Assembly: GCF_004010195.1 (NCBI RefSeq)
Contig: NC_057718.1
Coordinates: 5,809,110-5,873,109 of the forward strand
Direction of reading: 5' to 3'
DNA length: 64,000 nt
DNA from: Chiloscyllium plagiosum
Lineage: Eukaryota
Shown piece after piece: positions 145 through 46,254 of the stretch (positions within the stretch are counted from its first letter, which is position 1; every line of letters begins with the position of its first letter). Below the pieces are notes generated by a model. It worked only from the letters and a program-made list of their open reading frames with translations, did not search any database and was not told where the DNA came from. Both the position numbers and the translations under genes were made by a program.

Positions 145-500
145 GTAAGGACTGCAGATGCTCGAAACCAGAGTTTAGATCAGAGTGGTGCTGGAAAAGC
201 ACAGCAGGTCAGACAGCATCCGAGGAGCAGGAAAATCAATGTTTCAGGCAAAAGCCCTTCATCAGGAATAGAGGCAGGAAGCCTTCGGGGTGGAGAGATA
301 AATGGTGGTGGTGGTGGTGGTGGTGGNNNNNNNNNNNNNNNNNNNNNNNNNNGGGATGGAGGTGATAGGTCAGAGGGGAGGGTGGAGAGGATAGGTGGGA
401 AGGGAGATGGGTAGATAAGACTGTCATGAGGACAGTGCTGAGCTGGAAAGTTGGAACTGAGGCAAGGTGGGGGGGAGGGGAAATGAGGAAACTGGTGAAG
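145..500 (-). mobile_element. Penelope-like element terminal repeat (family A) with adjoining purine-rich segment, spans a small gap
   Basis: Reverse complement matches the repeat at 10900-11045, which adjoins PLE coding sequence; degenerate hammerhead core at ~236-268. Confidence 0.7.
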
Positions 501-1332
501 TGCATTTCCTATCCTACCCCAGCCAGAATGGGAATCAAAGCCTCACTGTTGGCATTATTCCAAACCATGCACTAGCTTCCCAGCCAACTGAGCTAACCGT
601 CCCGGTATGTATCTATATAAGAATAAATGTATCAGCTTTTACTGGTTGTATATTTCCAGATTTTTCTTTTGAACTTCCCTGGTGAGATTTGAATTCACGC
701 CTGAGCACATTGTGTGTCGATTCCCCTGAGCCTTCTGCCTCCTCCGAGGCATTGGAACACTAGGCTGCAGTCAGACAGAATTTCATTTGTTGGCTGGTGA
801 GAGGAAATTTGCAATGAAGTGTGGTTTCTGCTGGACCAAATGCCCAAGCTGGAGTTAAACAGTGGCTTGCTGTGTTTAAATGAGTTACACATTGCTAAGG
901 AAATTATTGGCTGGAAATGGCAAAAAGGAGTTTAGTATTAAATAATTGCAATAGTTCTGTCATCAGGCATCAGCACTCCAAAGGTCAGCTGTATACCTCA
1001 CTGTCACTGCTTCCTAATCCTGTCTCCTACCACTAGGAATGCAAGTTGGAGAAATATAAGACGTGCTACTGTCAAGAGATTAACCATTAGACTCCCAGTA
1101 TCACTCGGAAAATGCCTGCATTTCCTGGAATCGACTGTTGTTACTTTATAAGACCATGACAGCATAAGAAATAGATACAGGAGTAGGTTATTTGCACCCC
1201 TGAGACTGCTCGGCCATTCAATAGGATCATGGCTGATCTGATGTTCCTCACATCCAGTTTCTTGCCCTTTATCCTTAACCCTTGACCCTTTACTGTTCAA
1301 TAATCTATCTATACCAGCCTTAAACATACATG

Positions 1333-1737
1333 ATTTGGAGATGCTGGTGTTAGACTGGGGTGTACAAAGTTAAAAATCACACAATACCAAGGTTATAGTC
1401 CAACAGGTTTATTTGGAAGCACTAGCTTTCAGAGCGCTGCTCCTTCATCAGGTGGTTGTGGAGGATAAGATCGTAAAACACAGAATACATAGCAAATGTT
1501 TACAGTGTGATGTAACTGAAATTATATATTGAAAAAGATCTGGATTGCTTGTTCAGTCTCTCATCTTTTAGAATTAACATGTTGGTTTCAGTTTACCACA
1601 GAGAGCTGTGAGGGCAGTGACCTTGTGTATATATAAGGTTAAAAAATCACACAACACCGGATTATAGTCCAACAGGCTTATTTCGAAGCACTAGCTTTTG
1701 GAGCTCTGCTTCTTCATCAGGTGGTTGTGGAATATAA
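1333..1737 (-). mobile_element. Penelope-like terminal repeat family B, one long and one short tandem copy with a short CR1-like spacer
   Basis: aaaatcacacaacaccaggttatagtccaacagg...ctccttcatcaggtggttgtgg occurs at ~1373 and ~1643; an inverted copy lies at ~5885-6320. Confidence 0.65.
1420..1454 (-). ncRNA. Minimal hammerhead ribozyme motif (PLE family B)
   Basis: Minus strand reads CAC-CTGATGA-A-GGAGC-AGC-GCTCT-GAAA-G-CTA^GTG: intact core, stem I CAC/GTG, stem II with a G.U pair, palindromic AGCT helix III. Confidence 0.65.
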
Positions 1738-1745
1738 AACCGGAA

Positions 1746-4700
1746 GTCATAGAGATATACAGCATGGAAATAGACCCTTCAGTCCAACCCTTCTATGCCG
1801 ACCAGATATCCCAACCCAATCTAATCCCACCTACCAGCAACCGGCCCATGTCCCTCCAAACCCTTTCTATTCATAGACCCATCCCAATGCCTCTTAAATG
1901 TTGTAATTGTACCAGCCTCCACCACTATCTCTGTCAGCTCATTCCATACACTTACCACCCTCTGCGTGAAAAAGCTGTCCCTTAGGTCTCTTTTATATCT
2001 TTCCCCTCTCACCTGAAGCCTATGCCTTCTAGTTCTGGACTCCCCGATCCCAGAGAAAAGACCTTGTCTATTTATCCTATCCATGTCCCTCATAATTTTG
2101 TACACCTCTATAAGCTCACCCCTCAGCCTCCGACGCTCCAGGGAAAATAGCCCCAACCTGTTCAGCCTCTCCCTATAGCTCAAATTCTCTAACCCTGGCA
2201 ACATCCTTGTAAATCTTTTCTGAACCCTTTCAAGTTTCACAACATCTTTCCAATAGGAAGGAGATCAAAATTGCATGCAATATTCCAACAGTGGCCTAAC
2301 CAATGTCCTGTACAGCCACAACATAATCTCCCAACCCCCTGTAATCAATACTCTGACCAATAAAAGAAAGAATAGCAAACTTTATTCACTATCCTATCTA
2401 CCTGCGACTCCATTTTCAAGGAGCTATGAACCTGCACTTGAATGTCTCTTTGTTCAGCAACACTCCCTAGGACCTTACCATTAAGTGTATAAGTCCTGCT
2501 CAGATTTGCTTTCCCAAAATGCAGCACCTCGCATTTATCTGAATTAAACTCCATCTGCCACTTCTCAGCCCATTGACCCATCTGGTCAAGATCCTGTTGT
2601 AATCTGAGGTAACCCTCTTCGCTGTCGACTACACCTCCAATTTTGGTGTCATCTGCAAACTTGCTAACTGTAGCTCTTCTGCTCACACACAAATCATTTA
2701 TTAAATGACAAAAAGTAGAGGAACCAGCACTGATCCTTGTGGCACTCCACTAGCCTCAGGCCTCCAGTCTGAAAAACAACCCTCCACCACCACCATCTGT
2801 CTTCTACCTTTGAGCCAGTTCTGTATCCAAATGGCTAGTTCTCCCTGTATTCCATGACATCTAACCTTGCTAATCAGTCTCCCAAGAGGAACTTTGTTGA
2901 ATGCCTTACTGAAGCCCATATCAATCATATCTACTGCTCTGTCCTCATCAATCCTCTTTGAACCTCTTCAAAATACTCAATCAAGTTTGTGAGACATGAT
3001 TTCCCACGCGCAAAAACCCTTTGGATTACCATGTTGACTATCCCTAATCAGTCCTTGCCTTTCCAAATACATGTACATCTGTCCCTCAAAGTTCCTTCCA
3101 ACAACTTGCCCACCACTGACGTCAGGCTCACTGGTCTGTACTTCCCTGGCTTGTCCTTACCACTCTTCTTAAACAGTGGCACCATGTTAGCCAATCTCCA
3201 GTCTACCGGCATCTCACCTGTGACTATTGATGATACAAATATCTCAGTAAGAGGCCCAGCAATCACCTCTCTAGCTTCCCACAGAGTTCTAGGGTACACC
3301 TGATCAGATCCTGGGGATCTATCGACCTTTATGCATTTCAAGACATCCAGCACTTCCTCCTCTGTAATATGAACCTAGGGTCCCTCAAAGTTCCTTCCAA
3401 CAACTTGCCCACCACTGACGTCAGGCTCACTGGTCTGTACTTCCCTGGCTTGTCCTTACCACTCTTCTTAAACAGTGGCACCATGTTAGCCAATCTCCAG
3501 TCTACCGGCATCTCACCTGTGACTATTGATGATACAAATATCTCAGCAAGAGGCCCAGCAATCACCTCTCTAGCTTCCCACAGAGTTCTCGGGTACACCT
3601 GATCAGATCCTGGGGATCTATCGACCTTTATGCATTTCAAGACATCCAGCACTTCCTCCTCTGTAATTTGGACATTTTGCAAGGTGTCACCTTCTATTTC
3701 CCTAAGTCTATATCTTCCATAACCTTTTCCACAGTAAATACTGTTGCAAAATACTCATTTAGTATCTCCCTCATTTTGTGTGGCTCCACACAAAGGCCGC
3801 CTTGCTGATCTTTGAGGGGCCCTATTTTCTCCCGAGTTACCCTTTTGGCCTTAACGTATTTGAAAAAACCCTTTGGATTCTCCTTAATTCTGTTTACCAA
3901 AGCTATCTTATGTCCCCTTTTTGCCCTCCTGATTTCCCTCTTAAGTATACTCCTACTGGCTTTATACTCTTCTAAGAATTCACTCAATCGATCCTGTTTA
4001 TACCTTACATATGCTTCCTTCTTTTTCTTAACCAAACCTTCAATTTCTTTAGTTATCCAGCATCCCCTATACCTACCAGCTTTTCCTTTCACCCTAACAG
4101 GAATTTACTTTCTCTGGATTCTCGTTATCTCATTTCTGAAGGCTACCCATTTTCCAGCTGTCCCTTTACCTGCGAACATCTGCCCCATTCAGCTTTCGCA
4201 AGTTCTTGCCTAATACCATCAAAATTAGCCTTTCTCCAATTTAGAATTTCAACTTTTAGATCTGGTCTATCCTTTTCCATTGCTATTTTAAATCTAATAG
4301 AATTATGGTCACAGGCCCCCAAGTGCTCCCGCACTGACACCTCCGTCACCTGCCTTGCCTTATTTCCCAAGAGTAGGTCAAGTTTTGCACCTTCTTTAGT
4401 AGGTACATCCACATACTGAATCAGAAAATTGTCTTGTACACACTTATCAAATTCCTTTACATCTAAACCCTTAACAGTATGGCAGTCGCAGTTTATGTTT
4501 GGAAAGTTAAAATCCCCTACCATAACTACTCTATTATTCTTACAGATAGCTGAGGTTTCCTTACAAATTTGTTTCTCAATTTCCCTCTGACTATTGGGGG
4601 ATCTATAATACAATCCCAATAAGGTGATTATCCCTTTCTTATTTCTCAGTTCCACCCAAATAAATTCCCTGTATGTATTTCGAGGAATATCCTCCCTCAG

Positions 4701-5870
4701 CATAGCTGTAATGCTATCCCTTATCAAATATGCCACTGCCCCTCCTCTCTTTCTATCCTTCCTGTAGCATTTATATCCTGGACCATTAAGCTGCCAGTCC
4801 TGCCCATCCCGAGCCATGTTTCTGTAATTGCTATGATATCCTAGTCCCAAGTTCCTAACCACGCCCTGAGTTCATCTACCTTCCTTGTTTGGCCCCTTGC
4901 ATTGAAATAAATGCAGTTTAATTTATTAGTCCTACCTTGTCCGTGCCTGCCCTGACTGTTTGACTCGCTTTTGTTCTCGACTGTACCAGTCTCAGATTGA
5001 TCTCTTTCCTCGTTATCTCCCTGGGTCCACCCCCCCCCCACCCCTCACCTTACTAGTTTAAATCCTCCCGAGCAGCTCTAGAAAATCTCCCTGCCAGTAT
5101 ATTAGTCCCCTTCCAATTTAGGTGCAATCCATTCTGCTTGTACAGGTCACTTCTACCCCAAAAGAGATTCCAATGATCCAAAAATGTGAATCCTTCTCCC
5201 GTACACCAGCTCCTCAGCCATGCATTCATCTGCTCTATCCTCCTATTCCTGCCCTCACTAGCTGGTAGCACTGGGAGTAATCCAGATATTACTACCCTCG
5301 AGGACCTCCTTTTTAAATTTCTGCCTCACACTCTGTAATCTCCCTTCAGAATCTCAACCTTTTCCCTTTCTAGGTTGTTGGTTCCAATGTGGACAATGAC
5401 CTCTTGCTGGCCCGTCTCCCCCATGATGATATTCTGCACCCTCTCTGAGACATCCTTGATCCTGGCACCAGGGAAGCAACACACCATTCTGCTATTCGCT
5501 GCTGGCCACAGAAACGTCTGTCTATACCTCTGACTACAGAATCACCAAACACAATTGATCTCACAATGTACCCCTCGTTGCATAAGAGCCAGTCTCAATA
5601 CCAGAAACATGGCTGTTTGTGCTACGGTCCCCGGAGAATCCATCACCCCCTACATTTTCCAAAACAGCATACTTGTTTGAAATGGGTATATCCACAAAAG
5701 ACTCCTGCACTAGCTGCCTAGCTCTCTTACCTTTCCTGGAGTGATTATATCTGAGGCTTTCCCCCCTTCCTATAACTGCCATCCATCACATATTGTTGCT
5801 GTTGTGAATTCCTCATTGCTTATGTCTCTCCGACCGATCCATTCGATCTGATAAGATTCTCAACCAACCA
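1746..5870 (-). mobile_element. CR1 LINE, near full length, degenerate (ORF1 esterase-like, ORF2 endonuclease + RT)
   Basis: Frameshifted ORFs give GDSVVRG and LHLNWKG (ORF1), VMVGDFNFPNI and LDLLLGN (APE), [30 protein letters not shown] (RT) and LERVQKRFTRM...RRRLRG; short-repeat 3' tail near 1746. Confidence 0.95.
3081..3667. repeat. Tandem duplication of ~288 bp inside the CR1 (3081-3368 and 3380-3667)
   Basis: Two copies differ at about 2 positions and are joined by an ~11-nt linker; the same peptide appears in ORFs 3048-3353 and 3338-3682. Confidence 0.9.
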
Positions 5871-5884
5871 ATCGTATGAATCCA

Positions 5885-6320
5885 TGTACGATTCTGGAAA
5901 TCCGTTTTTTAGATTAGATTCAGTCTGACCATTGTAGCACAGGCAGCTTCACATAGAGCAGCTCACACCTTAAATGCATTATCTGGGCCGACATGTCACC
6001 AATTGTTAAAGTTCACTTGAGAATGTAGCATTTAAAAAAAAGTTTTGTGATTTACATATGAAAGAACTGAAACTAAAATGGTCATTCTAAAAAATGAGAG
6101 ACTTAACAAACAATCCAGGTCTTTTTCAATATATAATTTCAGTTACATCACACTGTAAACTTTTACTATAAATTCTGTGTCTTACAATCTAATCCTCCAC
6201 AACCACCTGATAAAGGAGCAGTGCTCCAAAAGCTAGTGCTTCCAAATAAATCTGTTGGACTATAACCTGGCATTGGTGATTTTAACCTTGTACACCCCAG
6301 TCCAACATCGGCGTCTCCAA
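5885..6320 (+). mobile_element. Penelope-like 3' region and terminal repeat, family B
   Basis: The 6050-6320 part is the reverse complement of 1333-1590; decayed hammerhead ccacctgataaaggagcagtgctccaaaagctagtg at ~6203-6238. Confidence 0.65.
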
Positions 6321-6324
6321 CTGC

Positions 6325-9240
6325 ACAGGAGGCTGTTTAATAAGAGTCTTTGGTGTTAGGGACAAGCTACTGGTATGGATAGAGGATTTGCTGACTGGCA
6401 ATTACAACGATTAGGGATAAATTGGTCTTTTTCATGATAGCAGCAGGTGACTAGTAGAGTTCCACAGGGTCTGTATTGGGACTGCAACTATTCACATTAT
6501 ATTTTAATGATCTGGATGACATTTGCAGATGACACAAAGATAGGTGAAGGGGCAGGTAGCGTTGAGGAAGCAGGGAGGCTGCAGAAGGACTTGGACAGGT
6601 TAGGAGAGTGGGCAAAGAAGTGGCAGATGGAAAACAATATGGGAGAATGTGAGGTGATACACTTTGGTCGGTAGAATAGAGGCATAGACTATTTTCTAAA
6701 TAAAGAAATGTTTCAGAAATCTGAAGCACAAAGGGACTTGGGAATTTTAGTTCAAGATTGTCTTAAGGTTAACATGCAGGTTCATTGGCAATTAGGAAGG
6801 CAAATGCAATATTAGTATTCATTTCAAGAGGGCTAGAACACAAGAACACAGATGTATTGCTGAGACTGTATAAGGCTCTGACCTGATCACATTTGGAATA
6901 TTGTGAGCAGCTTTGGTCCTGTATCTAACGAAAGAAAAGCTGGTATTGGAGGGGTTCCAGAAAAGGTCTATCAGAATGATACCAGGGATGAAGGGCTTGT
7001 TATATGAGGAGTAGCTGAGGACTCTGGATCTGTACTTGATGGAGTTTAGAAGAATCAGGGGGATCTCATTGAAACTTACAGAATACTGAGAGGCCTGGAT
7101 AATGTGGACATGGAGAAGATGTTTCTACTAGAAGGAGAGACTAGGACCTGAGGGCACAGCCTCAGAGTGAAGGAACGATCCTTTAGAACTAAGTTGAGGA
7201 GAAATTTCCTCAGTCAGAGAACACAGGGATAAAAATATTGTTTTTTAGAAAACAGTTCATGTTACAGAAGAGGAAGTGCTGAGGTCTGAAGAACATAAAG
7301 ATTGATAAATCTCTGGGATCTGATCAAATTTATCCCAGAATGTTCTGGGATCGTATGGAAGAAATTACAGGCTCCCACCAGAAATATTTGCATCATCTAT
7401 AACCACGGGTGAGATGCCAGAGGACTAGAGGGTGACTAATGTTGTGCCTTTATTGAAGAAAGGCTGTAAGGAGAAGCCAGGGAACTATAGACCAGTAAGC
7501 CTGACATCGTTGGAGGTGATTCTGAAAGATAAGATTTACATGCATTTGGAGAGGCAAGGACTGATTAGGGATAGTCAGCATGCTGTGCAAGAGAAATCGT
7601 GTCTCACAAACTTGATTTGAGTTTTTTGAGGAAGTAACCAAAAAGATTGATGAAGGCAGCGCAGTAGGTATTGTTTACGTGGACTTTAATAAAGCAGTTG
7701 ACAAGATTCTGCATGGTAGACTAATTAGTAAAGTGAGATAATGTGGGACGCAGGGAGAGCTTGTCAATTGTATACAAAATTGGCTTGATGGTAGGAGACA
7801 AGAGGGTGGTGGTGAAGCGTTGTTTTTTTGTACTGGAGGCCTGTGACCAGTGGTCACAGGGATCAGTACTAGGTCCACTTTTGTTTGTCATTTATATAAA
7901 CAATTTGGATGAGGATTTAGGAGGCATAATTAGTAAGTTTGCAGATGACATCAAAATTGGTGCTATAGTGGACAGTGAAGAAGGTTATTTAAGATTACAA
8001 AGAGATTTTGATCAATTGGGTCAATGCGCTGAGAATTGGCAGATGGAGTTTAATTTGGGTAAATATGAATTATTGCATTTTGGTAAAACAAACAAGGGCA
8101 GAATTTATCCAGTTAATCGTAGGGCCCTGGGCAGTATTGTAGAACAGAGACACCTAGGGCTTCAAGCAAATAACTCTTTGAAATTTGCTTCACAGTTGAC
8201 AGGGTGGTTAAAAGGCATTTGGCATGCTTGCCTTCATTGCTCAGATGAGCACAGGAGTTGGGATGTCATTTTGTATTTGTACAGGATGTTGGTGAGGCCT
8301 TTTCTGGAGCACTGTCTGCAGTTCTGGTCGTGTTAGTATAGGAATGCTATCATTAAATTAGAGATGGTTCAGAAAAGATTTACTAGCATGATGTCAGGAA
8401 TGGATTGGAGATGCCGATGTTGGACTGGGGTGCACAAAGTTAAAAATCACACAACACCGGGTTATAGTCCAACAGGTTTAATTGGAAGCACACTAGCTTT
8501 TGGAGCGAGGCTCCTTCATCAGGTGCTCCAAAAGCTAGTGTGCTTCCAATTAAACCTGTTGGACTATAACCCGGTGTTGTGTGATTTTTAACGTCAGGAA
8601 TGGAGGGTTTGAGTTATAAAAATAGGCTGGGACTTCTTCACTGGAGCACAGGAGGTTGAGGGATGACCTTATCGAGGTTTATAAAATCATGAGGAGCATA
8701 GATGAGGTGAATGGCAAGGGTCTCTTCCCTCGAATGGGGAGTTCAAAACTAGGTGACATATGTTTAAGGTGAGAGAAGAAAGTTCTAAAAGGACATGAGG
8801 GGCCATTTCTTTACACAGAAAGCGGTTTGTGTGTGGAATGAACCAGCAGACAAACTGGTGGACACAGGTACAGTTACAACATTTGAACAGCATTTCGATA
8901 AGTACATAAGTAGAAACAGAATATGATATGGTCAAACATAGGCAAGTGGGACTAGTTTAGTTTGGGAACATAGTCAGCATGGACTAAAGGGTCTGTTTCC
9001 ATGCTGTATGAATCTATGACTCTATGACAGAGGGTGGTCAATCCGTAGAACACATTGCTGCAGAAGGCCGTGGAGGCTCAGTCATTGAGTGTACCTAACA
9101 CAGAGGTAGGTAGGTTTTTGACTATGCAAGGATCAAAAACTATGGGGAGAAGGCAGAGGAATAGGGTTGAGAAACATACCAACCATAATTGAATGGCAAA
9201 GCAGACTCAATGTACTGTTCCTATAACTTATGGTTTATGT
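6325..9240 (+). mobile_element. Nested CR1 fragments: older CR1 3' part (6325-7220 and 9028-9240) interrupted by a second CR1 (~7222-9027)
   Basis: FADDTKIG...LQKDLDRLGEWAKKWQM; the second copy has [25 protein letters not shown] and a ctatgact tail at ~9013-9027, after which the first element resumes. Confidence 0.85.
8405..8592. mobile_element. 188-bp PLE family-B fold-back insertion with 12-bp TSD
   Basis: Perfect 68-bp inverted arms at 8439-8506 and 8525-8592; flanked by gtcaggaatgga at 8393-8404 and 8593-8604. Confidence 0.9.
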
Positions 9241-9639
9241 GGTCACACCAGCACTTTGTACAGTTGCAATAAGTCCCCTAATGTTTTACTCCAACCCCAC
9301 CTTGAAATAAGGGCCAACATTCCATTAGCCTTCTTGGTTGCGTGCTACAGTTGTGCACTAGCTTTCTGTGTTTCGTGCACAAATACCGTGGTGTTGCAGC
9401 TTTCGTCAGTTTTGCCCATTTAAATTATAGTCTGTTCTTTTGTTCTTCATTTCATAATAAACAACTTCACATTTTTCCACATTATACTCCATTTGCCAAC
9501 ATTTTGCCTACTTGCTTAACTTATCAATATCTCTCTGTAAACTGTCAAATGTACATCATTTAATGGATAACATACAGTGGTCTTAAGTAATCATGCCAAG
9601 TAGCCTGTGTTACCGTTATGTGGTCTTGATGTAGAATTA

Positions 9640-11045
9640 ATCGTCTTTTCGGAACGCTGACAACGGTGGGGAGGGAAATATATGTCCAGTGGGTGGGATC
9701 CATTTGGAGGTGCCGGAAGTGGCGGAGGATAATGCGTTGTATGTTGAGGTTGGTGGGGTGGAAGGCGAGGACCGGGGGGTTCTATCCTTGTTGCATTGGG
9801 AGGGGTGGGGTTCAAGGGCAGTGGTGTGAGAAGTGGAGGAGATGAGCTGGAGGGCATCATCAACCACGTGGGAAGGGAAGTTGCGATCGTGGAAGAAGGA
9901 GACCATCTGGGACTTTCTGAGGTGGAATTGGTCATCTTGGGAACAGGTGCAGCGGAGGCGGAGGAATTAGGCATAACGGATGGCATTTTTACAGGAGGTA
10001 GGGTGGGAGGAGGTGTAGTCTAGGTAGCTGTGAGAGGTCCAGGAAGGGAAGGGAGGTTTCCGAGGTGGTCCAGATGAATTTGAGGTTGGGGTGGAAGGTG
10101 CTACCCTACCTCTTGCAAAAATGCCATCCCGTATTCCCAATTCCTCCGCCTCCGCTGGATCTGCTCCCAGGAGGACCAGTTCCACCACAGAACACACCGG
10201 ATGGCCTCCTTCTTTAGAGACTGCAATTTCCCTTCCCACGTGGTTAAAGATGCCCTCCAACGCATCTCGTCCACATTCTGCACCTCCGCCCTCAGACCCC
10301 ACCCCTCCAACCGTAACAAGGACAGAANNNNNNNNNNNNNNNNNNNNNNNNNNNNNNNNNNNNNNNNNNNNNNNNNNNNNNNNNNNNNNNNNNNNNNNNN
10401 NNNNNNNNNNNNNNNNNNNNNNNNNNNNNNNNNNNNNNNNNNNNNNNNNNNNNNNNNNNNNNNNNNNNNNNNNNNNNNNNNNNNNNNNNNNNNNNNNNNN
10501 NNNNNNNNNNNNNNNNNNNNNNNNNNNNNNNNNNNNNNNNNNNNNNNNNNNNNNNNNNNNNNNNNNNNNNNNNNNNNNNNNNNNNNNNNNNNNNNNNNNN
10601 NNNNNNNNNNNNNNNNNNNNNNNNNNNNNNNNNNNNNNNNNNNNNNNNNNNNNNNNNNNNNNNNNNNNNNNNNNNNNNNNNNNNNNNNNNNNNNNNNNNN
10701 NNNNNNNNNNNNNNNNNNNNNNNNNNNNNNNNNNNNNNNNNNNNNNNNNNNNNNNNNNNNNNNNNNNNNNNNNNNNNNNNNNNNNNNNNNNNNNNNNNNN
10801 NNNNNNNNNNNNNNNNNNNNNCCCTCCCCTGCTCACCTATTGTACTCTATGCTACTTTCTCCTCACCCCCACCCTCCTCTAGCTTATCTCTCCACGCTTC
10901 AGGCTCTCTGCCTTTATTCCTGATGAAGGGCTTTTGCCCGAAACGTCAATTTTACTGCTCCTCGGATGCTGCCTGAACTGCTGTGCTCTTCCAGCATCAT
11001 TAATCCAAAATCTGGTTTCCAGCATCTGCAGTCATTGTTTTTACC
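9640..11045. mobile_element. Penelope-like element with inverted structure (minus arm ~9640-10100, plus arm ~10100-11045, gap inside)
   Basis: Peptides YLDYTSSHPTSCKNAI and MASFFRDCNFPSHVVKDAL resemble the PLE RT thumb/linker region and occur on both strands; ends in a family-A terminal repeat. Confidence 0.85.
10916..10951 (+). ncRNA. Minimal hammerhead ribozyme motif (PLE family A), core intact
   Basis: CTGATGA (10920-10926)-A-GGGC-TTTT-GCCC-GAAA-C-GTC^, predicted cleavage after 10947; palindromic ACGT helix III; stem I weak in this copy. Confidence 0.7.
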
Positions 11046-11229
11046 TAGAACCACAAGAACAAGCACCCGAGTTACAAATCTTCTCACAAACTTTGCATAA
11101 CCTGGTGTTGTGTGATTTTTGACTTTGTACAGCCCAGTCCAACACCAGCTCCTCCACATCATAAAGCTTGTACATGGTAGAAGTGTATGTGTTGTGTTCA
11201 GAAGACTAAGAATAAAATTGACTGGAAAA

Positions 11230-15199: not shown

Positions 15200-18100
15200 C
15201 GCAGCAGTATGTGATGGATGGCAGTTATAGGAAGGGGGAAACGTCTCAGATACAGTCACATAGATGGGTTAACTGCAGGAAAGATAAGAGAGATAGGCAG
15301 CTAGTGCAGGAGCCTTTTGTGGATATACCCATTTCAAACAGGTATGCTCTTTTGGAAAATGTAGGGGGTGATGGATTCTCAGGGGAATGTAGCATGAACA
15401 GCCAAGTTTCTGGTATTGAGACTAGCTCTAATGCAACGAGGAGTACGTAGGGTTCCAAGAGATCAATTGTGTTAGGGGATTGTCTAGTCCGAGGTACAGA
15501 CAGACGTTCTGTGGCCAGCAGTGAAAAGCAGAATGGTGTGTTGCTTTCCTGGTGCCAGGATCAAGGATGTCTCAGAGAGGGTGCAGAATGTCATCACGGG
15601 GGAGACGGGCCAGCAAGAGGTCATTGTCCACATTGGAACCAATGACATAGAAAGGGAAAAGGTTGAGATTCTGAAGGGAGATTACAGAGAGTTAGGCAGA
15701 AATTTTAAAAAGAGGTCCTTGAGAGTAGTAATATCTGGATTACTCCCGGTGCTACGAGCTAGTGAGGGCAGGAATAGGAGGATAGAGCAGATGAATGTAT
15801 GGCTGAGGAGCTGATGTATGGGAGAAGGATTCACATTTTTGGATCTTTGGAATCTCTTTTGGGGTAGAAGTGACTTGTACAAGAAAGACGGACTGCACCT
15901 CAATTGGAAGCGGACTAATATACTGGCAGGGAAATTTGCTAGAGCTGCTCGGGAGGATTTAAATTAGTAAGGTGAGGGGTGGGACCTAGGGAGATAACGA
16001 GGAAAGAGATCAATCTGAGACTTGTACAGTTGAGAACAGACGCGAGTCAAACAGTCAGGACAGACAGGGACAAGGTCGGACTAATAAATTAAACCACATT
16101 TATTTTAATGCAAGGGGCCTAACAGGGAAGGCAGATGAACTCAGGGCATGGTTAGGAACTTGGGACTAGGATATCATAGCAATTACAGAAACATGGCTCA
16201 GGAATGGGCAGGACTGGCAGCTTAATGTTCCAGGATACAAATGCTACAGGAAGGATAGAAAGGGAGGCAAGAGAGGAGGGGGAGTAGCATTTTTGGTAAG
16301 GGATAGCATTACAGCTGTGCTGAGGGAGGATATTTCTGGAAGTATATCCAGGGAAATTATTTGGGTGGAACTGAGAAATAGGAAAGGGATGATAACCTTA
16401 TTGGGATTGTATTATAGATCCCCTAATAGTCAGAAGGAAATTGAGAAACAAACTTGTAAGGAAACCTCAGCTATCTGCAAGAATAATAGGATGATTATGG
16501 TAGAGGATTTTAACTTTCCAAACATAGACTGGGATTGCCATAGTGTTAAGGGTTTAGATGGTGAGGAATTTGTTAAGTGCGTACAAGAATTTTTTTCTGA
16601 TTCAGTATGTGGATGTACCTACTAGAGAAGGTGCAAAACTTGACCTACTGTTGGGAAATAAGGCAGGGCATGTGACTGAGGTGTCAGTGGGGGAGCACTT
16701 GGGGGCCAGCAACCATAATTCTATTAGATTTAAAATAGCGATGGAAAAGGATAGACCAGATCTAAAAGTTGAAGTTCTAAATTGGAAAAATGCCAATTTT
16801 GATGGTATCAGGCTAGAACTTTCAAAAGTTGATTGTGGGCAAATGTTCTCAGGTAAAGGGACGGCTGAAAAATGGGAAGCCTTCAGAAATGAGATAGCGA
16901 GAATCCAGAGAAAGTATGTTCCTGTAAGGGTGAGAGGAAAGGCTGTAGGTATAGCGAATGCTGGATGACTAAAGAAATTGACTGTTTTGTTAAGAAAAAG
17001 AAGAAAGCATATGTCAGGTATAAACAGGACAGATCGAGTGAATCTTTAGAAGAGTATAAAGGCAGTAGGAGTATACTTAAGAGGGAAATCAGGAGGGCAA
17101 AAAGGGGACATGAGATAGCTTTGGCAGATAGAATTAAGGAGAATCTAAAGGGTTTTTACAAATACATGAAGGACAAAAGGGTAACGAGGGAGAGAATAGA
17201 ACCCCTCAAAGATCAGCAAGGCGGCCTTTGTGTGGAGCCACAGAAAATGAGGGAGATACTAAATAAGCATTTTGCATCAGTATTTACTGTGGAAAAGGAT
17301 ATGGAAGATATACTGCAGGGAAACAGATGGTAACACCTTGCAAAATGCCCACATTACAGAGGAGGAAGTGCTGGATGTCTTGAAAAGGGTAAAGGTGGAT
17401 AAATCCCCAGGACCTGATCAGGTGTACCCGAGAACTCTGTGGGAAGTTAGAAAAGTGATTGCTGGGCCTCTTGCTGAGATATTTGTATTATCAATAGTCA
17501 CAAGTGAGGTGCTGGAAGATTGGAGGTTGACTAACGTGTTGCCACTGTTTAAGAAGGGTGGTAAGGACAAGCCAAGGAACTTTAGACCAGTGAGCCTGAT
17601 GTCAGTGGTGGGCAAGATGTTGGAGGGAATTCTGGGGGACAGGATGTACATATATTTGGAAAGGCAAGGGTTGATTAGGGATAGTCAACATGGCTTTGTG
17701 CATGGGAAATCATGTCTCACAAACTTGATTGAGTTTTTTGAGGAAGTAACAAAGAGGATTGATGAGGGCAGAGTGGTGGATGTGATCTATATGGATTTCA
17801 GTAAGGCGTTCGACAAGGTTCCTCATAGNNNNNNNNNNNNNNNNNNNNNNNNNNNNNNNNNNNNNNNNNNNNNNNNNNNNNNNNNNNNNNNNNNNNNNNN
17901 NNNNNNNNNNNNNNNNNNNNNNNNNNNNNNNNNNNNNNNNNNNNNNNNNNNNNNNNNNNNNNNNNNNNNNNNNNNNNNNNNNNNNNNNNNNNNNNNNNNN
18001 NNNNNNNNNNNNNNNNNNNNNNNNNNNNNNNNNNNNNNNNNNNNNNNNNNNNNNNNNNNNNNNNNNNNNNNNNNNNNNNNNNNNNNNNNNNNNNNNNNNN

Positions 18101-18742
18101 NNNNNNNNNNNNNNNNNNNNNNNNNNNNNNNNNNNNNNNNNNNNNNNNNNNNNNNNNNNNNNNNNNNNNNNNNNNNNNNNNNNNNNNNNNNNNNNNNNNN
18201 NNNNNNNNNNNNNNNNNNNNNNNNNNNNNNNNNNNNNNNNNNNNNNNNNNNNNNNNNNNNNNNNNNNNNNNNNNNNNNNNNNNNNNNNNNNNNNNNNNNN
18301 NNNNNNNNNNNNNNNNNNNNNNNNNNNNNNNNNNNNNNNNNNNNNNNNNNNNNNNNNNNNNNGGGGTGACCTTATAGAGGTTTACAAAATTATGAGGGGC
18401 ATGGATAGGATAAATAGACAAAGTCTTTTCCCTGGGGTCAGGGAGTCCAGAACTAGAAGGCATAGGTTTAGGGTGAGAGGGAAAAGATATAAAAGAGACC
18501 TAAGGGGCAACTTATTCACACAAAGGGTGATACGTGTACAGGATGAGCTGCCAGAATAAGTGGTGGAGGCTGGTACAATTGCAACATTAAAGAGGCATTT
18601 GGATGGGTATATGAATTGGAAGAGTTTGGAGGGATATGGTCTGGGTGCTGACAGGTGGGACTAGATTGGGTTTGGATATCTGGTCGGCATGGACTGATGC
18701 GTCTGTTTCCATGCTGTATATCTCTATGACTGTATGACTCTA
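15200..18742 (+). mobile_element. CR1 LINE, near full length, same family as 1746-5870 but opposite orientation, gap inside
   Basis: ORF1 CCFPGARIKDV...HIGTND; APE EDFNFPNIDW; RT FRPVSLMS, SQHGF, DFSKAFDKVPH; tail ctatgactgtatgactcta. Confidence 0.95.
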
Positions 18743-18939: not shown

Positions 18940-19045
18940 AAAAATCACACAACACCAGGTTATAGTCCAACAGGTTTATTTGGAAGCACTAGCTTTTGGA
19001 GCACTGCTCCTTCATCAGGTGGTTGTGGGCATCTCTAAATCATGA
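18940..19045 (-). mobile_element. PLE family-B terminal repeat fragment with decayed hammerhead
   Basis: aaaatcacacaacaccaggttatagtcc...ctccttcatcaggtggttgtgg. Confidence 0.7.
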
Positions 19046-21884: not shown

Positions 21885-22015
21885 AGGAGAAAGTGAGGTC
21901 TGCAGATGCTGGAGATCAGAGATGGAAATGTGTTGCTGGAAAAGCGCAGCAGGTCAGGCAGCATCCAGGGAACAGGAGAATCGATGTTTCGGGCATTAGC
22001 CCTTCTTCAGGAATG
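21885..22015 (-). mobile_element. PLE family-A terminal repeat with hammerhead motif (21979-22014)
   Basis: Minus strand ATTC-CTGAAGA-A-GGGC-TAAT-GCCC-GAAA-C-ATC^GATT. Confidence 0.7.
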
Positions 22016-22441
22016 AATAAAACACTTTTGTTTTATTCATTCACATGATGTGGGTGTCACTGGCGAGGCCAGCATTCCTAATTGTCCAGAGGGCAGTTAA
22101 GAGTCAATCACATAGCTGTAGGAGTGGAGTCACATGTAAGCCAGATGCGATAAGGATGACAGATTTTCCTCCCTGAAGGATATAAGTGAAGCAGATAGGT
22201 TTTTGCATCAATTGACAATGATCAATTCAACCCTTAATTCCAGATTTTTATTCAATTCAAATTCCACCATAGTAGGATTTGAAACCAGGTCCCTAGAATA
22301 TTAACCTATAGACTAATAGTTGAGCAATATTATTGCTAGGCCATCACCTCATCCTTATTTACTACTTGTTTCATTGTTAGTTGTTGGAGCTTGCTATGCA
22401 CAAATTAATTGCTGAAATTGTCTAATTTGCAATAGGGCTTA

Positions 22442-24894: not shown

Positions 24895-25103
24895 TTAAGA
24901 GTGTGGTGCTGGAAAAACTCAGCAGGTCGGGCAGCATTTGAGGAGCAGAAGAATCGACATTTCAGGCAAGAGCCCATCATCAGGATGAATCACTGATGAG
25001 GGGCTCTTGCCCAAAACGTCGACTCTCCTGCTCCTCAGATGCTGCCTGACCTGCACCACACTCTCGTCTCTGATCTCCAGCATCTGCAGTCCTCACTTTC
25101 TCC
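24895..25103. mobile_element. PLE family-A fold-back (two inverted terminal repeats) within an old CR1
   Basis: 24899-24985 is the approximate reverse complement of 24993-25063; a decayed hammerhead core on each arm. Confidence 0.8.
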
Positions 25104-29179: not shown

Positions 29180-30290
29180 GATTGTTGACTTGCTTGTTGA
29201 GCTGATAGCTTTGTTTGCAGATGTTTCGTTACCATTCTAAATAACATAATCAGTTAGCTTCTGGTGAAGCATGAGTGTTCTGCCCTGCTTGCTATTTATG
29301 TGTTTGGGTCTGCTGGGGTTGGTGATGTCATTTCAGGTTTTGTTGCTGGTTTTGTTTCTTAGTGGTTGGTATATGGGGTCCAAATCCACATGTTTATTAA
29401 TGGAGTTTGGGGTTGAGTGGCAGGCCTCCAGGGATTCCTGTGCATGTCCTTTTTTGGCTTGTTTTAGCTTAGGTACATTTACATAGTCGAATTGGTGCCC
29501 TTCATTGTCTGTGTGTATGGTTACAATTTGGTCATATCTCCTGGTGGCTAGTTGATATTTGTGTACCCTGGTGGCTAATTTCCTTCCTGTTGGCCCTGTG
29601 TTGTGCTTTTGGCAGTCTATCCATGGTATTTTGTATATCATGTTGATCCTGCTGGTTGTGGGTGTGGGATCTTGTTAATAGGTGTCGTAGAGTGGTGGTG
29701 GGCTTGTGGCTACCATGATACCCAGGGGTCGGAGTAGTCTGGTGATCATTTCTGATATGTTCATAGTATATGGCAGTGTGGTCAGTGTCTTTTGTCTTCC
29801 TGTTGTGACTTGTTGTGTAGGCGTTGGCGGACTGCTCTTTTTGAGCCGTCATTATTTCTGAAATGTTGTGTAAGTGTGCTTCTTCTACTTTGCGCAGCTC
29901 TGAGGTGTCGCAGCGTGTTATAGTTCATTTGAACATTGTTCTGATGCAGCTGTTTTTGGGTGTTAGGATGGTTGCTGCTGTAATTGAGTACTTGGTGTGT
30001 GTAGGTGGCCTTCCTGTATACACTGGTCTGGAGCTCCCCATTGACCTTGCATTCAACCTTTATGTCCTGGAAAATGAATCAGTTGTTGTTCTTTTCCTTG
30101 GTGAGTTTTACGCTAAGGATGTTGTTTATGACTTGGTGAGTTTCTTCTAGCTGTGCACATTCAATAATGACAAAAGTGTCACCTACATAGCAGTTCCACA
30201 GTTTAGGTTGGATAGTGAGCAGTGCTGTCCATTCCAGTCTTTGCATGACCACTTCTGCTATTAGTCCTGATATTGGTGAACCCATGGGAC
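29180..30290 (-). mobile_element. Penelope-like element (family C): RT C-terminal part + GIY-YIG endonuclease, degenerate
   Basis: MGSPISGLIAEVVM, YVGDTF (YVDD-like), IYKIPW.DC....G.TGRKLATRVHKY, LEACHS. Confidence 0.9.
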
Positions 30291-32057: not shown

Positions 32058-32420
32058 TGTGTTTCCCAGTTGATTAATTTACATGCAATGCCATTAAGGG
32101 CAATGAAGACCACCAAAGGTGAGGGAGAAAGGGAGTTGACTAAATCAAATGGAGTTGGACGGGAGCAAAAGCACTCTACCCTCGCTAGTGCCCACCTCCC
32201 TCCACAGTGTCAAGAGTGTTGGTGGATACAGCGTGCTGTCTTTCCAAAGACACATGGGCAGGAACATAACTGTGGAGGAAGAGCAGTTCTCATTCCTGAT
32301 GAAGGGTTTTTGTCTGAAAAATCAATTTTCCTGCTCCTCAGATGCTGTCTAACCTGCTGTGCTTTTCCAGCACCACATTCTCGACTCTAATCTCCAGCAT
32401 CTGCAGTCTTCCGTTTTGCC
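32058..32420. mobile_element. Chimeric insertion: inverted Tx1 3' fragment + PLE family-A terminal repeat, bounded by a 16-bp TSD
   Basis: ctgatgtatcaggttg (32042-32057) and ctgatgcatcaggttg (32421-32436); 32058-32287 aligns to the reverse complement of ~30832-31056. Confidence 0.75.
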
Positions 32421-32995: not shown

Positions 32996-33152
32996 AAAAA
33001 CAATGACTGCAGATGCTGGAAACCAGATTCTGGTGTAGAGTGGTGCTGGAAAAGCACAGCAGTACAGGCAGCATCCGAGGAGCAGGAAAATCGACATTTC
33101 GGGCAAAAGCCCTTCATCAGGAATACAGGCAGAGTGCCTGAAGGGTGGAGAG
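32996..33152 (-). mobile_element. PLE family-A terminal repeat with hammerhead motif (33089-33124) and short TSD actgtgt
   Basis: Minus strand ATTC-CTGATGA-A-GGGC-TTTT-GCCC-GAAA-T-GTC^GATT. Confidence 0.75.
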
Positions 33153-40233: not shown

Positions 40234-42599
40234 CTACAAAACAATGACTGTGTTCATTAAACTTACATTCTGATGCTGGTAACTGACTTGAAATGTTAAC
40301 GTTGGTTCTCTGCACAGAGGCTGCCTGTTGAAGAGTTTTTACCCAAAACATTGATTTTCCTGCTCCTCGGATACTACCTGACCTGCTGTGCTTTTCCAAC
40401 ACCACTCTAATCTTGACTCTGATCTCCAGCATCTGCAGTACCCACTTCCGCCTCACTGGCACTGTGTTTAGTGGGGCTGTGTTCTTTGGAACTATGTTCA
40501 CTGGGGCTGTGTACTCACTTGAAAGGATTAGGATTATCTAATGAAAGGAGACTACACTGTTCCATCTGCTGTTTAGTGAATCAGTAACATGGGAGTGTGA
40601 CATTAAAAGGATGAAGAACACAGGAAGTAAGAGCAAGCTGAGGCTAAAAGGCCCCTTGAGAATAATAATTGGAAGTTGATGCAACAAATAACTGTTACAT
40701 CATGGATCACCACATTTGGCAATGGCCTTTCCAAGTCAAACTGAAGGTAATTTTCACAAATTTACATGCCAAATGGCATAAAGAGATATTGGGACATATG
40801 GACTGGGTCAGTGAGGGCATTAAATAACCTATTAGTTAGATGACTTATTTTCAATCATATTGATTGAAGAAAAGACACCATAACAAACTCAGCCTAGCTT
40901 AACATCGCACATGAAAGAAAGCACATCAGACTTCACCAGAGGAGTCACCTAGCTCATATATTTGAAGCAGTGAATCCCTACAATATTCCAATTTACAGGT
41001 GGTTGAACTGCCCTCAGAACTGCAACTAATACTGGTTTTGGGCAGTAGGAGTGAACAGAAAGTGATCAGCTCATGCAATATATTTCATTGGTCAGTGAAA
41101 CTGCAGCAAAAATTGTCATTGGGATTTGATGAACCTCATAAAGAGAACATGAGGAAACACAAAGAGCACATGTCCCTTTGAAGCTTATTCATCTGATAGC
41201 CCGTAATTCCATTTTTATTGGGCATTTCTAACAAGTGCGCCTGTCTTATCCTGCCTTGAAGATAGCTCTAAATAACTACAGATTTGCATTGGATATCTCT
41301 TCTAACATCTTGCCTTTATTGATTCATTCAACTGGTTTACTCCTCACAAATCCTCATTTTATGACCCCGCCTTATTTTTAACATTTTGACCGAATCTTCC
41401 CCATGGTCTGCAGAGGTAGTTTAACCGAATATAGCTTCTTTGTAGTCACAAAGAAGATTGCAATTTCATTAACATTTACCTCAGGATAACTCTGAGTTTA
41501 GTTCTGATATCCTCCAAAACTCCTACTTGAATTTTCAATGGTTTCCTATGCAACAGCCCAGTGAGAGACAGCACTTTCAAAGATAAGAAGAGCAAAGAAA
41601 ACCAATGCAGAAAATACAGCACTGGATCAAACAAGAGCAGAGAAGCAACCATGAAAATTGGGGACATTCTGTTGGGTGAATTAAATTGATGCTGCAAGAT
41701 TGCCTTTTCTGTAATTATACTGTGCCCTTTTACTAATAAAGGACTAAGTAAATGTTAACTGTAAAGGGTCGGTAAAAAATACAGCTTCATCAGTTAGAAC
41801 AAAGCAGCTGATGCCAGCACATCTCCTAGTTATGGAACTGATATGTAATTACCATCTGACTGCTACCTACTTTAACTTCTTAAAGATTCTTAAATCAGTG
41901 CACAGTGATAATCTCCAAGTTAAAGGGAATTAAGACCATGATCTTCGTGATATATCTCCTTGAACAAACCTGAAGGATGTAAGGGTCACAAGGCCAGTAA
42001 AAGGAACAACTGGACTTCACTTCTCTAGGATTGCTAGTAAGTGAAAGTTACATTGATATTTATAATCTAACACTTGAACTTTGTACACCTGTAAAGATAA
42101 AGTGGACATCATCCTAATGGGGCACTCTCTCATCAGACAGAGATAACTATTGGAAGGGGGAGGTAAGGGGAGAAGTTGAGAAGATGACACAAAGATAGAT
42201 GGATAGTATTCAGGAAGCAAAGAGGCTGCAGAAGGATTTAGGTAAGGAAATTTTGCAAAGAAATGGTAGATGGAATACAATGTGATAAATTGTGAGGTTA
42301 TGCTTTATGGTAGGCAGAATAGAGGCATAGACTAATTTCTAAATGATAAACTCAGCTGGTGTGGGAATTAAAGCCATAATGTTAGCATTGTTCTACATTG
42401 CAAACCAAACATCCAGCTAGCTGGCCCCTTCAATAAGCCTATCATTGCTGATGCTACTTAGAGGAACTAAATTAATTAAATCGATTCAAATTTTTCTAAA
42501 CCACATGTTGAGCGATATAAGGATACATCCAACACCAGAAAAATGAAGTTAAATCAATAGCAAGAAGCCATATAGAATCAGAAGGCATAGGATATGTGT

Positions 42600-44572: not shown

Positions 44573-46254
44573 NNNNNNNNNNNNNNNNNNNNNNNNNNNN
44601 NNNNNNNNNNNNNNNNNNNNNNNNNNNNNNNNNNNNNNNNNNNNNNNNNNNNNNNNNNNNNNNNNNNNNNNNNNNNNNNNNNNNNNNNNNNNNNNNNNNN
44701 NNNNNNNNNNNNNNNNNNNNNNNNNNNNNNNNNNNNNNNNNNNNNNNNNNNNNNNNNNNNNNNNNNNNNNNNNNNNNNNNNNNNNNNNNNNNNNNNNNNN
44801 NNNNNNNNNNNNNNNNNNNNNNNNNNNNNNNNNNNNNNNNNNNNNNNNNNNNNNNNNNNNNNNNNNNNNNNNNNNNNNNNNNNNNNNNNNNNNNNNNNNN
44901 NNNNNNNNNNNNNNNNNNNNNNNNNNNNNNNNNNNNNNNNNNNNNNNNNNNNNNNNNNNNNNNNNNNNNNNNNNNNNNNNNNNNNNNNNNNNNNNNNNNN
45001 NNNNNNNNNNNNNNNNNNNNNNNNNNNNNNNNNNNNNNNNNNNNNNNNNNNNNNNNNNNNNNNNNNNNNNNNTCCCTAATTTGTTCAGAGGAGATCATGG
45101 TCCAAGGGCCATTAATTACAGCTGCAGGTGCAGAAATGTTTCTCCCAAGAGTGGGCCTCTTTTGCTCAATACTTTCATGGGATTGACCAAAAGCACATAA
45201 ACAACAACAGCAGGAGTAGGCCATTTGGCCCATCGAGCCTGCTCCAGGATTCAATAAGATCATGGCTGACGTTTTCATGGACTCAGCTCCACTTACCCAC
45301 CCTCTCACCATAACCCTTAATTCCTTTACTGTTCAAAAATCTATCTGTCTTTGCCTTAAAACATTCAAGGGGGTAGCCTCAACAACTTCACTGGGCGGGG
45401 AATTCCACAGATTCACAACCCTTTGGGTGAAGACGTTCCTCCTCAACTCCATTCTAAATCTGCTCCTCCTTATCTTGAGGCTGTGCCCCCTAGTTTTATT
45501 CAAAGCTGGCACTTATTCCAAATCTTAGTCACTGCCAAGAGGTGATGAGGGATCTCCTTCTTGAATGGCTTTAGTTTCTGTTATGCACGTTGTCTCACCG
45601 TGGTTCCTAATATTTAATTTGGAGGAAATTTCCGCTCACTCATATTGTTTCTGCACTACATTCACAAAATGTCATGATCTGTTTTTACACAGAATGCAAA
45701 AAAGGCACTAAGCTGTGAGTCCCTCCAAAAAGGCAATGGGCAATGATAAAGTGGTTTCATTTTGTCTGAATCCTCATTCAACTCTATCAGCTTTGCCTTC
45801 CTGGCACGTGCCGAGTCTAGAGCCTATCAGGAGTCTACCATTCATTAACTGCGGGGCTTTCTAAGTAAGCAATGTAACACCCAAAAGACTCTTTGTGCAT
45901 TGTCAGCATAACCTCCACAACAGCTCGGTCTCTGGAGATGGGAAACTGCACTGCCCACGAACTTCCTAGTGCATTTGTTGCAATCAATCTTTTTCATCGC
46001 TGATCCATTGGGATGGAGAGGGTGTATGAAAACAGTGGGATGACGACATCGTCATGCAGAATTGTGAGTTGAGTAATTCGACATGGGAAGTGATGCTAAT
46101 TAACGGGTCTGTATTATTTGCTCAATGATACACTGGTGAAAAACACTGCATTGTTATTAAGTTGAGGAGCTGACAGCTGCAGCAGCTCAGCACATTTATG
46201 CACCGGGTGGTTAGATTAGAGAGAAGCAAGCTTGGTCCATGGCTGGGTCAGGAC

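Follow-up and report, generated by a model that had tools for sequence, protein, structure and literature searches.

Why does the core of a hammerhead ribozyme recur every few kilobases along one stretch of the Chiloscyllium plagiosum genome, and do the elements that carry it need the cleavage for which such a core is built? The question is raised by 64,000 nucleotides of contig NC_057718.1 (assembly GCF_004010195.1, positions 5,809,110 to 5,873,109, forward strand), hereafter the window, to which all coordinates refer unless a fetched genomic locus (L number) is named. The window belongs to a 3.56-Gb assembly and comprises 62,385 non-N bases and 1,615 N in six runs. A preliminary description, made from the letters of the window alone, had listed 16 positions of the motif, sorted the copies into three families (A, B and C) and ascribed them to Penelope-like elements (PLEs). 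Following up these claims, we found that the motifs are very probably minimal type-I hammerhead motifs (min-HHRs) carried in the non-coding 3' tails of at least three PLE families, a reading drawn from sequence comparison.

Motif anatomy and covarying helices

The family A copy at 10920-10947(+), which reads CTGATGA-A-GGGC-TTTT-GCCC-GAAA-CGTC, combines the hammerhead core C3-A9 and G12-A14 with a helix II of 4 bp closed by G10.1-C11.1, and has one extra base after A9. The tetranucleotide A15.1-C-G-U16.1 takes the place of helix III, and C17 comes next. A strict descriptor demanding the core, the G10.1-C11.1 pair, a helix II of at least 4 bp, a palindromic 15.2/16.2 pair, U16.1 and H17, and leaving helix I free, had this copy as its sole match in the window. 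On 200 dinucleotide-preserving shuffles, the same descriptor gave a mean of 0.0 and a maximum of 0 matches, and a chance origin of the motif can be excluded. A loose regular expression returned 16 window matches, ten in families A, B or C and six unrelated and devoid of a helix II. All 16 positions listed in the preliminary description hold CTGANGA-N-stemII-GAAA-NNTH or a mutated version of it, so that the motifs themselves stand, whereas some of the positions were displaced by 3-4 nt (6203 for 6207, 8491 for 8494).

When one natural tail per family was compared with the window by blastn, 14 (A), 9 (B) and 3 (C) high-scoring segment pairs (HSPs) were obtained, of which 18 span the entire motif and two span part of it. 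The motif thus recurs because these are copies of repeats, and not independent motifs. With 18 full copies (ten A, seven B and one C; coordinates verified) and two partial ones, the density is about one motif per 3.5 kb of non-N sequence, close to the one every few kilobases first proposed. The core is intact in the window copies at 10920-10947 and 62394-62427, as it is in the majority sequences of families A, B and C.

Pairing was examined on 15 hand-picked natural copies representing these three families and a fourth, D, with pairs counted by script; a MAFFT alignment of the 15 put family B off by one column and was left unused for pair counting. The extra base between positions 9 and 10.1 is present in all of them (A in 11, U in three, G in one). 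At 10.1-11.1, 12 copies have G-C and three have G.U, the latter with T at C11.1, a CpG-type change, and the 15.2-16.2 pair is C-G or G-C in 13, U-A in one (palindromic too) and U.G in one. An ACGU or AGCU palindrome occupies the helix III position in 13 of the 15, the remaining AUAU and AUGU belonging to decayed relatives of family C. H17 is C, A or U and never G, N7 takes all four bases, and only N7, the loops and the inserted base vary within the core region. The extra base, the G10.1-C11.1 pair, the palindromic 15.2-16.2 pair and the lack of helix III agree with the minimal type-I assignment made in the preliminary description.

Around this constant core, family A displays a helix II GGGC/GCCC, the cleavage triplet GUC and a weaker helix I (AUUC/GAUU, 3/4 positions pairing, with an internal U.U). 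Family B has GGAGC/GCUCC or GGAAU/AUUCC in helix II, the triplet CUA, and CAC/GUG or UCAC/GUGA in helix I. In family C, helix II is GUCACC/GGGGAC, with an internal A.G mismatch, or of the GUUAC/GUGAU type, the triplet is GUC, and helix I is GCA/UGC or CUCA/UGAG, pair 2.3-1.3 being G-C in one case versus U-A in the other. Family D, which comes from the fetched loci L034:1652-1681 and L012:333-362(-), one copy with the helix III palindrome ACGU and the other with AGCU, has helix II GAGUC/GACUC or GG(C)UC/GACC(U) and helix I AGUU/AACU, its pair 10.2-11.2 being A-U versus G-C. Helix I counts 3-4 pairs in families B, C and D, each with its own sequence, and no similarity is visible between the tails of the four families beyond the common hammerhead core. 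Among the 15 copies, helices I and II are fully different in sequence from one family to another, and also between subfamilies, and are still paired; they covary between families. The stems first described for families A, B and C, their covariation and the reduction of helix III to an ACGU or AGCU palindrome were all recovered on the parsed copies.

The 18 full motifs of the window, with two solo units of family A, are the following:

238-265, minus strand: family A hammerhead, decayed through C11.1>T, G16.2>A and C17>T
10920-10947, plus strand: family A hammerhead, the only copy matching the strict descriptor; position 1.1 is A, so that pair 1.1-2.1 is C.A
21983-22010, minus strand: older subfamily of family A (N7 = A, loop UAAU, G16.2>A)
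21900-22017: solo unit of ~120-140 nt starting at helix I, containing the hammerhead 21983-22010(-)
24956-24983, minus strand: family A hammerhead carrying C11.1>T and C15.2>T; left arm of an inverted pair joined head to head
24993-25020, plus strand: family A hammerhead, right arm of the pair with 24956-24983(-) (G12>A)
32296-32323, plus strand: family A hammerhead, decayed (5 changes)
32292-32408: solo unit starting at helix I, containing the hammerhead 32296-32323(+)
33093-33120, minus strand: family A hammerhead changed at one CpG only (C15.2>T)
40325-40352, plus strand: family A hammerhead, heavily decayed (7 changes), absent from the preliminary description
50698-50725, plus strand: family A hammerhead with C11.1>T and a further change in helix II; it forms an inverted pair with 50606-50689(-), of which it is the right arm
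59813-59840, plus strand: decayed family A hammerhead bearing C3>A, G12>A and further changes, absent from the preliminary description
1423-1451, minus strand: family B hammerhead with one CpG change (C11.1>T), within the tail 1330-1593(-)
1692-1720, minus strand: family B hammerhead, decayed (G12>A and others), within the older partial tail 1632-1764(-)
6207-6235, plus strand: family B hammerhead, decayed (G8>A, G12>A), within the tail 5874-6320(+)
8494-8522, minus strand: family B hammerhead (G12>A), at the turn of the perfect inverted repeat 8468-8562
18990-19018, minus strand: family B hammerhead (G12>A and a loop CpG change), in a copy beginning ~10 nt upstream of C3
28353-28381, minus strand: older B-like subfamily (helix II GGAAU/AUUCC, helix I UCAC/GUGA, H17 = U, A9>G)
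58646-58674, minus strand: older B-like subfamily (G12>A, helix II mismatch, helix I UCAC/GUGA)
62394-62427, minus strand: family C hammerhead with intact core and stems and one loop II change; cleavage predicted between 62394 and 62393

Penelope-like element context

Genome searches with three window copies gave 1,500 (A), 2,734 (B) and 1,994 (C) first-look candidates, and among the 40-41 matches listed for each family, identity to the window copy was 94-100% (A), 89-100% (B) and 94-100% (C). All three families have sharp 3' ends, at window positions 11045 (A), about 1329 (B) and 62318 (C), which places the hammerhead 98 nt, about 94 nt and 76 nt before the end, respectively; their 5' ends are variable. 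Upstream of the family A tail, the frame L031:826-1509(-) matches the Pfam reverse transcriptase (RT) domain RVT_1 with 31.3 bits (cut-off 29.6) and, of 614 candidates, 285 are homologues of it at E<=1e-10; those with a name that rank highest come from Chiloscyllium punctatum (91% identity) and other sharks and rays. A full-length homologue of 806 aa (P0036) scores 29.4 bits for RVT_1, just below the same cut-off, and its C-terminal GIY-YIG domain scores 25 bits, above the cut-off of 22.6. An RT followed by a GIY-YIG endonuclease is the architecture of endonuclease-bearing PLEs. The frames directly upstream of the tails align to the GIY-YIG region of P0036 in all three families (E 7e-24 for A, 1e-6 for B and 5e-9 for C). 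Searched alone, the family C frame has a weak Pfam GIY-YIG match (E 0.097), the endonuclease-region frames of families A and B have no Pfam match, and comparison with solved structures gave no match for the RT fragment and chance matches only for the family B endonuclease fragment. Taken together, these upstream frames support the prediction that families A, B and C represent the non-coding 3' tails of three PLEs, and the PLE origin first proposed for the motifs holds for each of them.

Further traits of endonuclease-bearing PLEs were found, namely 5' truncation and inverted 5'-truncated arms, with 23 head-to-head HSP pairs in 295 kb. Variable 5' ends and frequent inverted 5'-truncated arms are as expected for target-primed reverse transcription of PLEs, and inverted and partial-tandem PLE structures, including such arms, are described in the portions of PMC8557442 consulted. 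The PLE pieces of the window are the following:

10822-11045, plus strand: 3' tail of the family A PLE, preceded by the N run 10328-10821 and ending sharply at 11045
10102-10326, plus strand: PLE frame piece, 88% identical to residues 523-597 of the protein P0002, from the same family A copy as 10822-11045 and upstream of the gap
9632-10096, minus strand: inverted 5'-truncated arm of a family A PLE frame (P0002 residues 473-647), head to head with 10102-10326
29965-30285, minus strand: PLE frame piece found by tblastn
56501-57690, plus strand: frame fragment of another PLE, 58% identical to P0002 residues 109-399, with no attached tail in the window
62318-62722, minus strand: 3' end of the family C PLE, with the frame 62414-62722(-) and the 3' end of the insertion at 62318

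The family C frame ends in ...STEDVT-stop, with its TAG stop codon in loop II of the hammerhead; in this family (window copy 62394-62427 and loci L069-L077), the frame is thus open through the 5' half of the motif and coding sequence and motif overlap. Family B loci such as L043:1020-1160, L040 and L047 have, after the stop codon and before a 3' untranslated region of ~510 nt, a variable stretch that is rich in CA or in C and resembles a microsatellite. The head-to-head joint between 9632-10096(-) and 10102-10326(+) falls within the frame, away from the hammerhead, its arms beginning at P0002 residues 473 and 523. At one place, the ends of three PLE tails adjoin, with family A at 10822-11045, the last 49 nt of family C at 11047-11095 and the last 66 nt of family B at 11097-11162, which suggests repeated insertion beside existing PLE tails. 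N runs of ~500 bases (10328-10821, 17829-18362 and 44573-45072, and in many fetched loci) lie inside or beside retroelement frames, in many family A loci at the same place directly upstream of the tail; they may correspond to assembly gaps in complex PLE insertions or to stretches withheld from the sequence.

The window also contains fragments of long interspersed nuclear elements (LINEs) with an APE endonuclease and an RT, at 2348-4871(-), 7737-8333(+) and 16170-16622(+), which are separate from the hammerhead families. Family B was considered as the tail of such a LINE in view of the fragments at 2348-4871(-), and this candidate was rejected, longer B copies having a GIY-YIG-type frame upstream.

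Decay, cleavage and rival explanations

Exact intact motifs number 45,889 (A), 12,463 (B) and 4,963 (C) genome-wide, at least 63,315 in sum, the family A count having been made with a 32-nt pattern in which N7 and two loop bases were free; reversed control patterns gave 0 matches in the whole genome. In the window, by contrast with these intact copies, almost all motifs appear to be dead relics, chiefly inactivated at C11.1-G12, the CpG that joins helix II to GAAA. One of these two bases is lost in 13/18 window copies (C11.1 in five, G12 in eight), the only unimpaired copies are 10920-10947 and 62394-62427, and those at 1423 and 33093 bear one CpG change each. Across 39 (A), 41 (B) and 21 (C) copies, the CpG positions of the motif changed at 0.12, 0.24 and 0.05 per site, respectively, and other kinds of change over all motif sites reached 0.028, 0.032 and 0.014. 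CpG sites therefore change 4-8 times more often per site than others, and the proposed decay of most copies by CpG mutation is borne out. At non-CpG sites, divergence in the motif is around half of the mean for the tail (A 0.012 vs 0.026; B 0.028 vs 0.054; C 0.006 vs 0.026) in copies that are mostly young and were picked by similarity to the window copies, which lends weak support to constraint.

How would such a motif work? From published work on such motifs, we infer a dimer mechanism. A lone copy could not close helix III. Between two copies, located on one tandem or read-through RNA or on separate RNAs, the palindromes would pair (ACGU with ACGU, or AGCU with AGCU) and the helix I strands would be swapped, forming a double hammerhead with two complete active sites. 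This would cut after H17, probably with help from the element's own protein, and a working motif would be needed in source copies only. Lunse, Weinberg and Breaker reportedly described dimer cleavage of min-HHRs in RNA Biol. For the PLE of Anolis, the consulted sections of PMC11167929 describe the hammerhead cut as protein-assisted.

Several results weigh against this reading, either against the hammerhead identity itself or against cleavage as its function. An Infernal search with the Rfam hammerhead models, named in the preliminary description as a check, failed to recover the motif: there was no match at gathering or at E<=10 in the whole window, in 10880-10990 alone (111 nt) or in loci L067 and L050 (1.8-kb search). 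The models miss these motifs because they require a helix III and loop contacts that the motifs lack. In ViennaRNA dimer folding, the designed helix II with an intermolecular helix III reaches -16 to -21 kcal/mol, whereas the minimum-energy dimers are other structures at -23 to -28 kcal/mol; thermodynamic folding of monomers also favours other structures, energy-based folding being uninformative for a hammerhead and not decisive here. Among 347 raw RNA reads of a related organism over the family C tail, no cluster of read ends occurs at the predicted site 62394/62393, a weak test with most reads 90-95% alike and a poly-A single-cell library. In the subfamily of the 10920 copy (position 10948; loci L002-L030), a CpG-type change has put A in place of G1.1, the base following C17, and the helix I pair beside the predicted cleavage site is thereby broken; the copies of this subfamily are nonetheless 94-100% identical and numerous. 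Head-to-tail joints, from the end of one tail to the next hammerhead, gave 21 exact matches genome-wide. An upstream pseudo-LTR (long terminal repeat) copy, which full elements should possess, was not found in three regions upstream of long frame copies, one of them mostly N, and these regions have nothing in common with each other or with the tails. Whether the core is better conserved than its flanks, a check named in the preliminary description, receives a modest answer: for all the lower non-CpG divergence of the motif, no tail has it as its most conserved stretch, and 14/138 (A), 30/217 (B) and 15/272 (C) windows equal or exceed its conservation. From the literature, dimers have low activity in vitro (PMC4209133), and hammerhead mutants of the Anolis PLE still insert in vitro, according to the consulted sections of PMC11167929. 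The A1.1 subfamily, the absent read ends and the folding preference argue against a strong need for cleavage, none of them being decisive.

Two side observations accompany these searches. The RNA reads on the family C tail (62318-62640) lie ~10:1 in one orientation, with depth rising towards the 3' end of the element, which hints at sense-strand transcripts, library design and passenger transcripts being uncontrolled. The top Rfam matches (MIR860, mir-297 and others) are artefacts of the inverted repeat 8468-8562 and of the TG/CA-rich low-complexity stretch 49130-49450, which yields a series of spurious sub-threshold microRNA and snoRNA matches.

The 5' ends of the copies form a further pattern. 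The 5' starts of HSPs fall between -10 and +5 nt of C3 in 31 of 56 internal starts in family A (3.3 expected if uniform) and in 8 of 42 in family B (1.3 expected), HSP ends being accurate to within a few nucleotides only; in family C, no such clustering occurs (0/29). HSPs reaching the query start, an N run or a locus edge (33 A, 25 B and 1 C) were left out of these counts. About half of the clustered family A starts have an inverted arm upstream, and most of the others are solo units of ~140 nt with unique flanks on both sides. Genome-wide, two hammerhead 5' halves face each other at 8,824 family A loci (0-24 nt apart) and 1,741 family B loci (0-20 nt apart), with 0 in controls, and the varying spacers of these joints indicate many events and not one amplified unit. 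Thousands of such snap-back joints are placed 0-10 nt upstream of C3. Three head-to-head pairs lie in the window, at 8468-8562, 24903-25054 and 50606-50776. The first is a perfect inverted repeat (arms of 38 nt, spacer of 18 nt) that matches Rfam MIR860 with 55 bits (cut-off 89) and consists of head-to-head family B tails with the turn inside the hammerhead; both arms have a private GT insertion, which indicates one snap-back event. In the second, a single event is likewise indicated by the private loop CUCU common to 24956-24983(-) and 24993-25020(+). By eye, nothing convincing as RNA polymerase III promoter boxes was seen in the solo unit, which contains a TTTT run.

The 2014 supplement, in the portion consulted (PMC4209133), refers to a second motif lying on the opposite strand; in the literature examined, we saw no description of joints gathered where helix I begins. 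Such clustering is compatible with a template RNA whose 5' end is fixed at helix I. This end could be a transcription start, or the point where an RT tethered to the hammerhead module stops, and self-priming of the cDNA would follow. We tentatively suggest that the minimal hammerhead may mark the very 5' end of the copied RNA and that a discrete RNA made of hammerhead and tail may give rise to the solo units of ~125-140 nt, an idea that we hold as rather less probable than its negation. If true, the hammerhead and tail block would be a self-sufficient parasite of PLEs, similar to a short interspersed nuclear element (SINE), the tens of thousands of intact hammerheads in one genome would be explained, and the hammerhead would be an end-defining or protein-docking element as much as a ribozyme.

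These data bring into play an explanation in which hammerhead and tail are kept mainly as a protein-held RNA module marking the template end, cleavage being dispensable or vestigial and the ~125-140-nt block being SINE-like and copied in trans. We regard this as a serious, if doubtful, competitor. The clustered starts at C3 in families A and B, the solo family A units with unique flanks, the thousands of head-to-head joints against none in controls, the amplification of the A1.1 subfamily despite its broken 1.1-2.1 pair and the absence of read ends at the predicted cleavage site all speak for it, as does the Anolis element, whose hammerhead is protein-assisted and whose insertion is unaffected by core mutations in the part of PMC11167929 consulted. 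It leaves aside, however, that the full catalytic core is kept across four unrelated tails, including positions of use in chemistry only (G5, A6, G8, G12 and an H17 that is not G); family C has no clustering of 5' ends, HSP ends are approximate to a few nucleotides, and those same core mutants did not impair template use in vitro, as far as the consulted text goes, so that the core is not needed for binding there.

A different route would make the copies tandem non-LTR retrozymes, excised by the hammerhead, circularised and copied from circular RNA. A type-I hammerhead with a palindromic helix III is indeed found in animal retrozymes, a link between PLE pseudo-LTRs and retrozymes, with one cartilaginous fish among their hosts, is drawn in the portion consulted of a 2026 preprint, and the genome does hold 21 exact head-to-tail joints. 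These joints are nevertheless very few against at least 45,889 intact family A motifs, in the window as in the fetched loci, copies occur scattered, singly or as inverted pairs, and form no arrays, and head-to-head joints at a fixed 5' end suit a linear RNA with an end better than a circle; this origin is therefore improbable. Least credible of all, to the point of being negligible, is that CTGATGA and GAAA merely happen to surround a hairpin, or that the motif belongs to the tail of an APE-type LINE or an ordinary SINE. LINE fragments with APE endonuclease and RT do lie near some window copies and Rfam gives no hammerhead match, but four otherwise dissimilar tails have the same core with different paired helices, the shuffles yielded no descriptor match, and the frames directly upstream are of the GIY-YIG and not of the APE type. 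Minimal hammerheads in PLE tails, whether or not their cleavage is still needed, are thus the reading that we retain.

Significance and comparison with known systems

The novelty is modest: the motif is the known minimal hammerhead of PLEs, in families not found described for cartilaginous fishes. A literature search for PLE hammerheads in sharks and cartilaginous fishes found no paper describing them, and the 2026 preprint (Li, Clavereau & Pollet), in the part consulted, sampled one species of Chondrichthyes for retrozymes. The concept itself gains little: PLE hammerheads were already published in 2014, together with their dimer design, their covarying families and their very high numbers in lower vertebrates. 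The unusually numerous intact motifs of this genome nevertheless offer ample natural variation from which to learn which positions of a minimal hammerhead are constrained, and intact copies beside CpG-killed ones, together with an amplified subfamily with a broken helix I, bear on the open question whether PLEs need cleavage. In addition, 5' ends and inversion joints gather where helix I begins, which gives a concrete and testable hint at the way in which PLE templates start. For annotation, a warning follows: the Rfam models overlook the whole class of PLE min-HHRs.

Rfam covers hammerheads of type I, II and III, HH9 and HH10. The motifs described here have the catalytic core of these families and the helix order of type I, unlike them without a helix III hairpin or loop-loop contacts. 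With the non-LTR retrozymes of animals, as presented in the consulted portions of Cervera & de la Pena 2020 (PMC7229834) and of Li, Clavereau & Pollet (2026 preprint), they have in common the type-I hammerhead whose helix III is palindromic, as well as short non-coding units akin to PLE pseudo-LTRs and monomer copies scattered in the genome. Retrozymes are defined there by tandem arrays and circular RNAs, whereas arrays are rare here.

Closer is Poseidon PAc of Anolis carolinensis, a PLE reconstituted in vitro (Frangieh et al. 2024, PMC11167929, consulted in part). It is likewise an element with RT and GIY-YIG domains and a hammerhead overlapping the frame, its genomic tail is set by the start of reverse transcription, and public RNA reads lack ends at its hammerhead cut site. 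The PAc frame begins at helix II, whereas the motif lies here after the frame (A, B) or across its stop codon (C), 76-98 nt before the end of the tail.

The closest counterparts are the PLE min-HHRs of Cervera & de la Pena 2014 (PMC4209133), which reside in the pseudo-LTRs on both sides of the frame of metazoan PLEs and recur with four features outside the search descriptor of that study. The present motifs have the same core boxes, the extra base between 9 and 10.1, the G10.1-C11.1 pair, the palindromic 15.2-16.2 pair and no helix III, together with a short open helix I; the alignment in the consulted part of the supplement has helix I strands of 3-5 nt in cichlid, lamprey and coelacanth motifs. 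In both cases, moreover, a genome has several consensus families that show compensatory changes, and the copies are mostly single and derived from truncated elements, with some pairs on opposite strands. The two differ in host group, the main text and the supplement file searched containing no shark, and in number, with at least 63,315 intact motifs here against ~4,000 in coelacanth and ~9,000 in Xenopus there (counted with a different descriptor). Helix II has 4-5 bp in families A and B against 6-8 bp in many PLE motifs, and the stop codon of the family C frame lies inside loop II. As far as sequence can tell, the motifs of the window therefore show every hallmark published for the minimal hammerheads of PLEs (PMC4209133).

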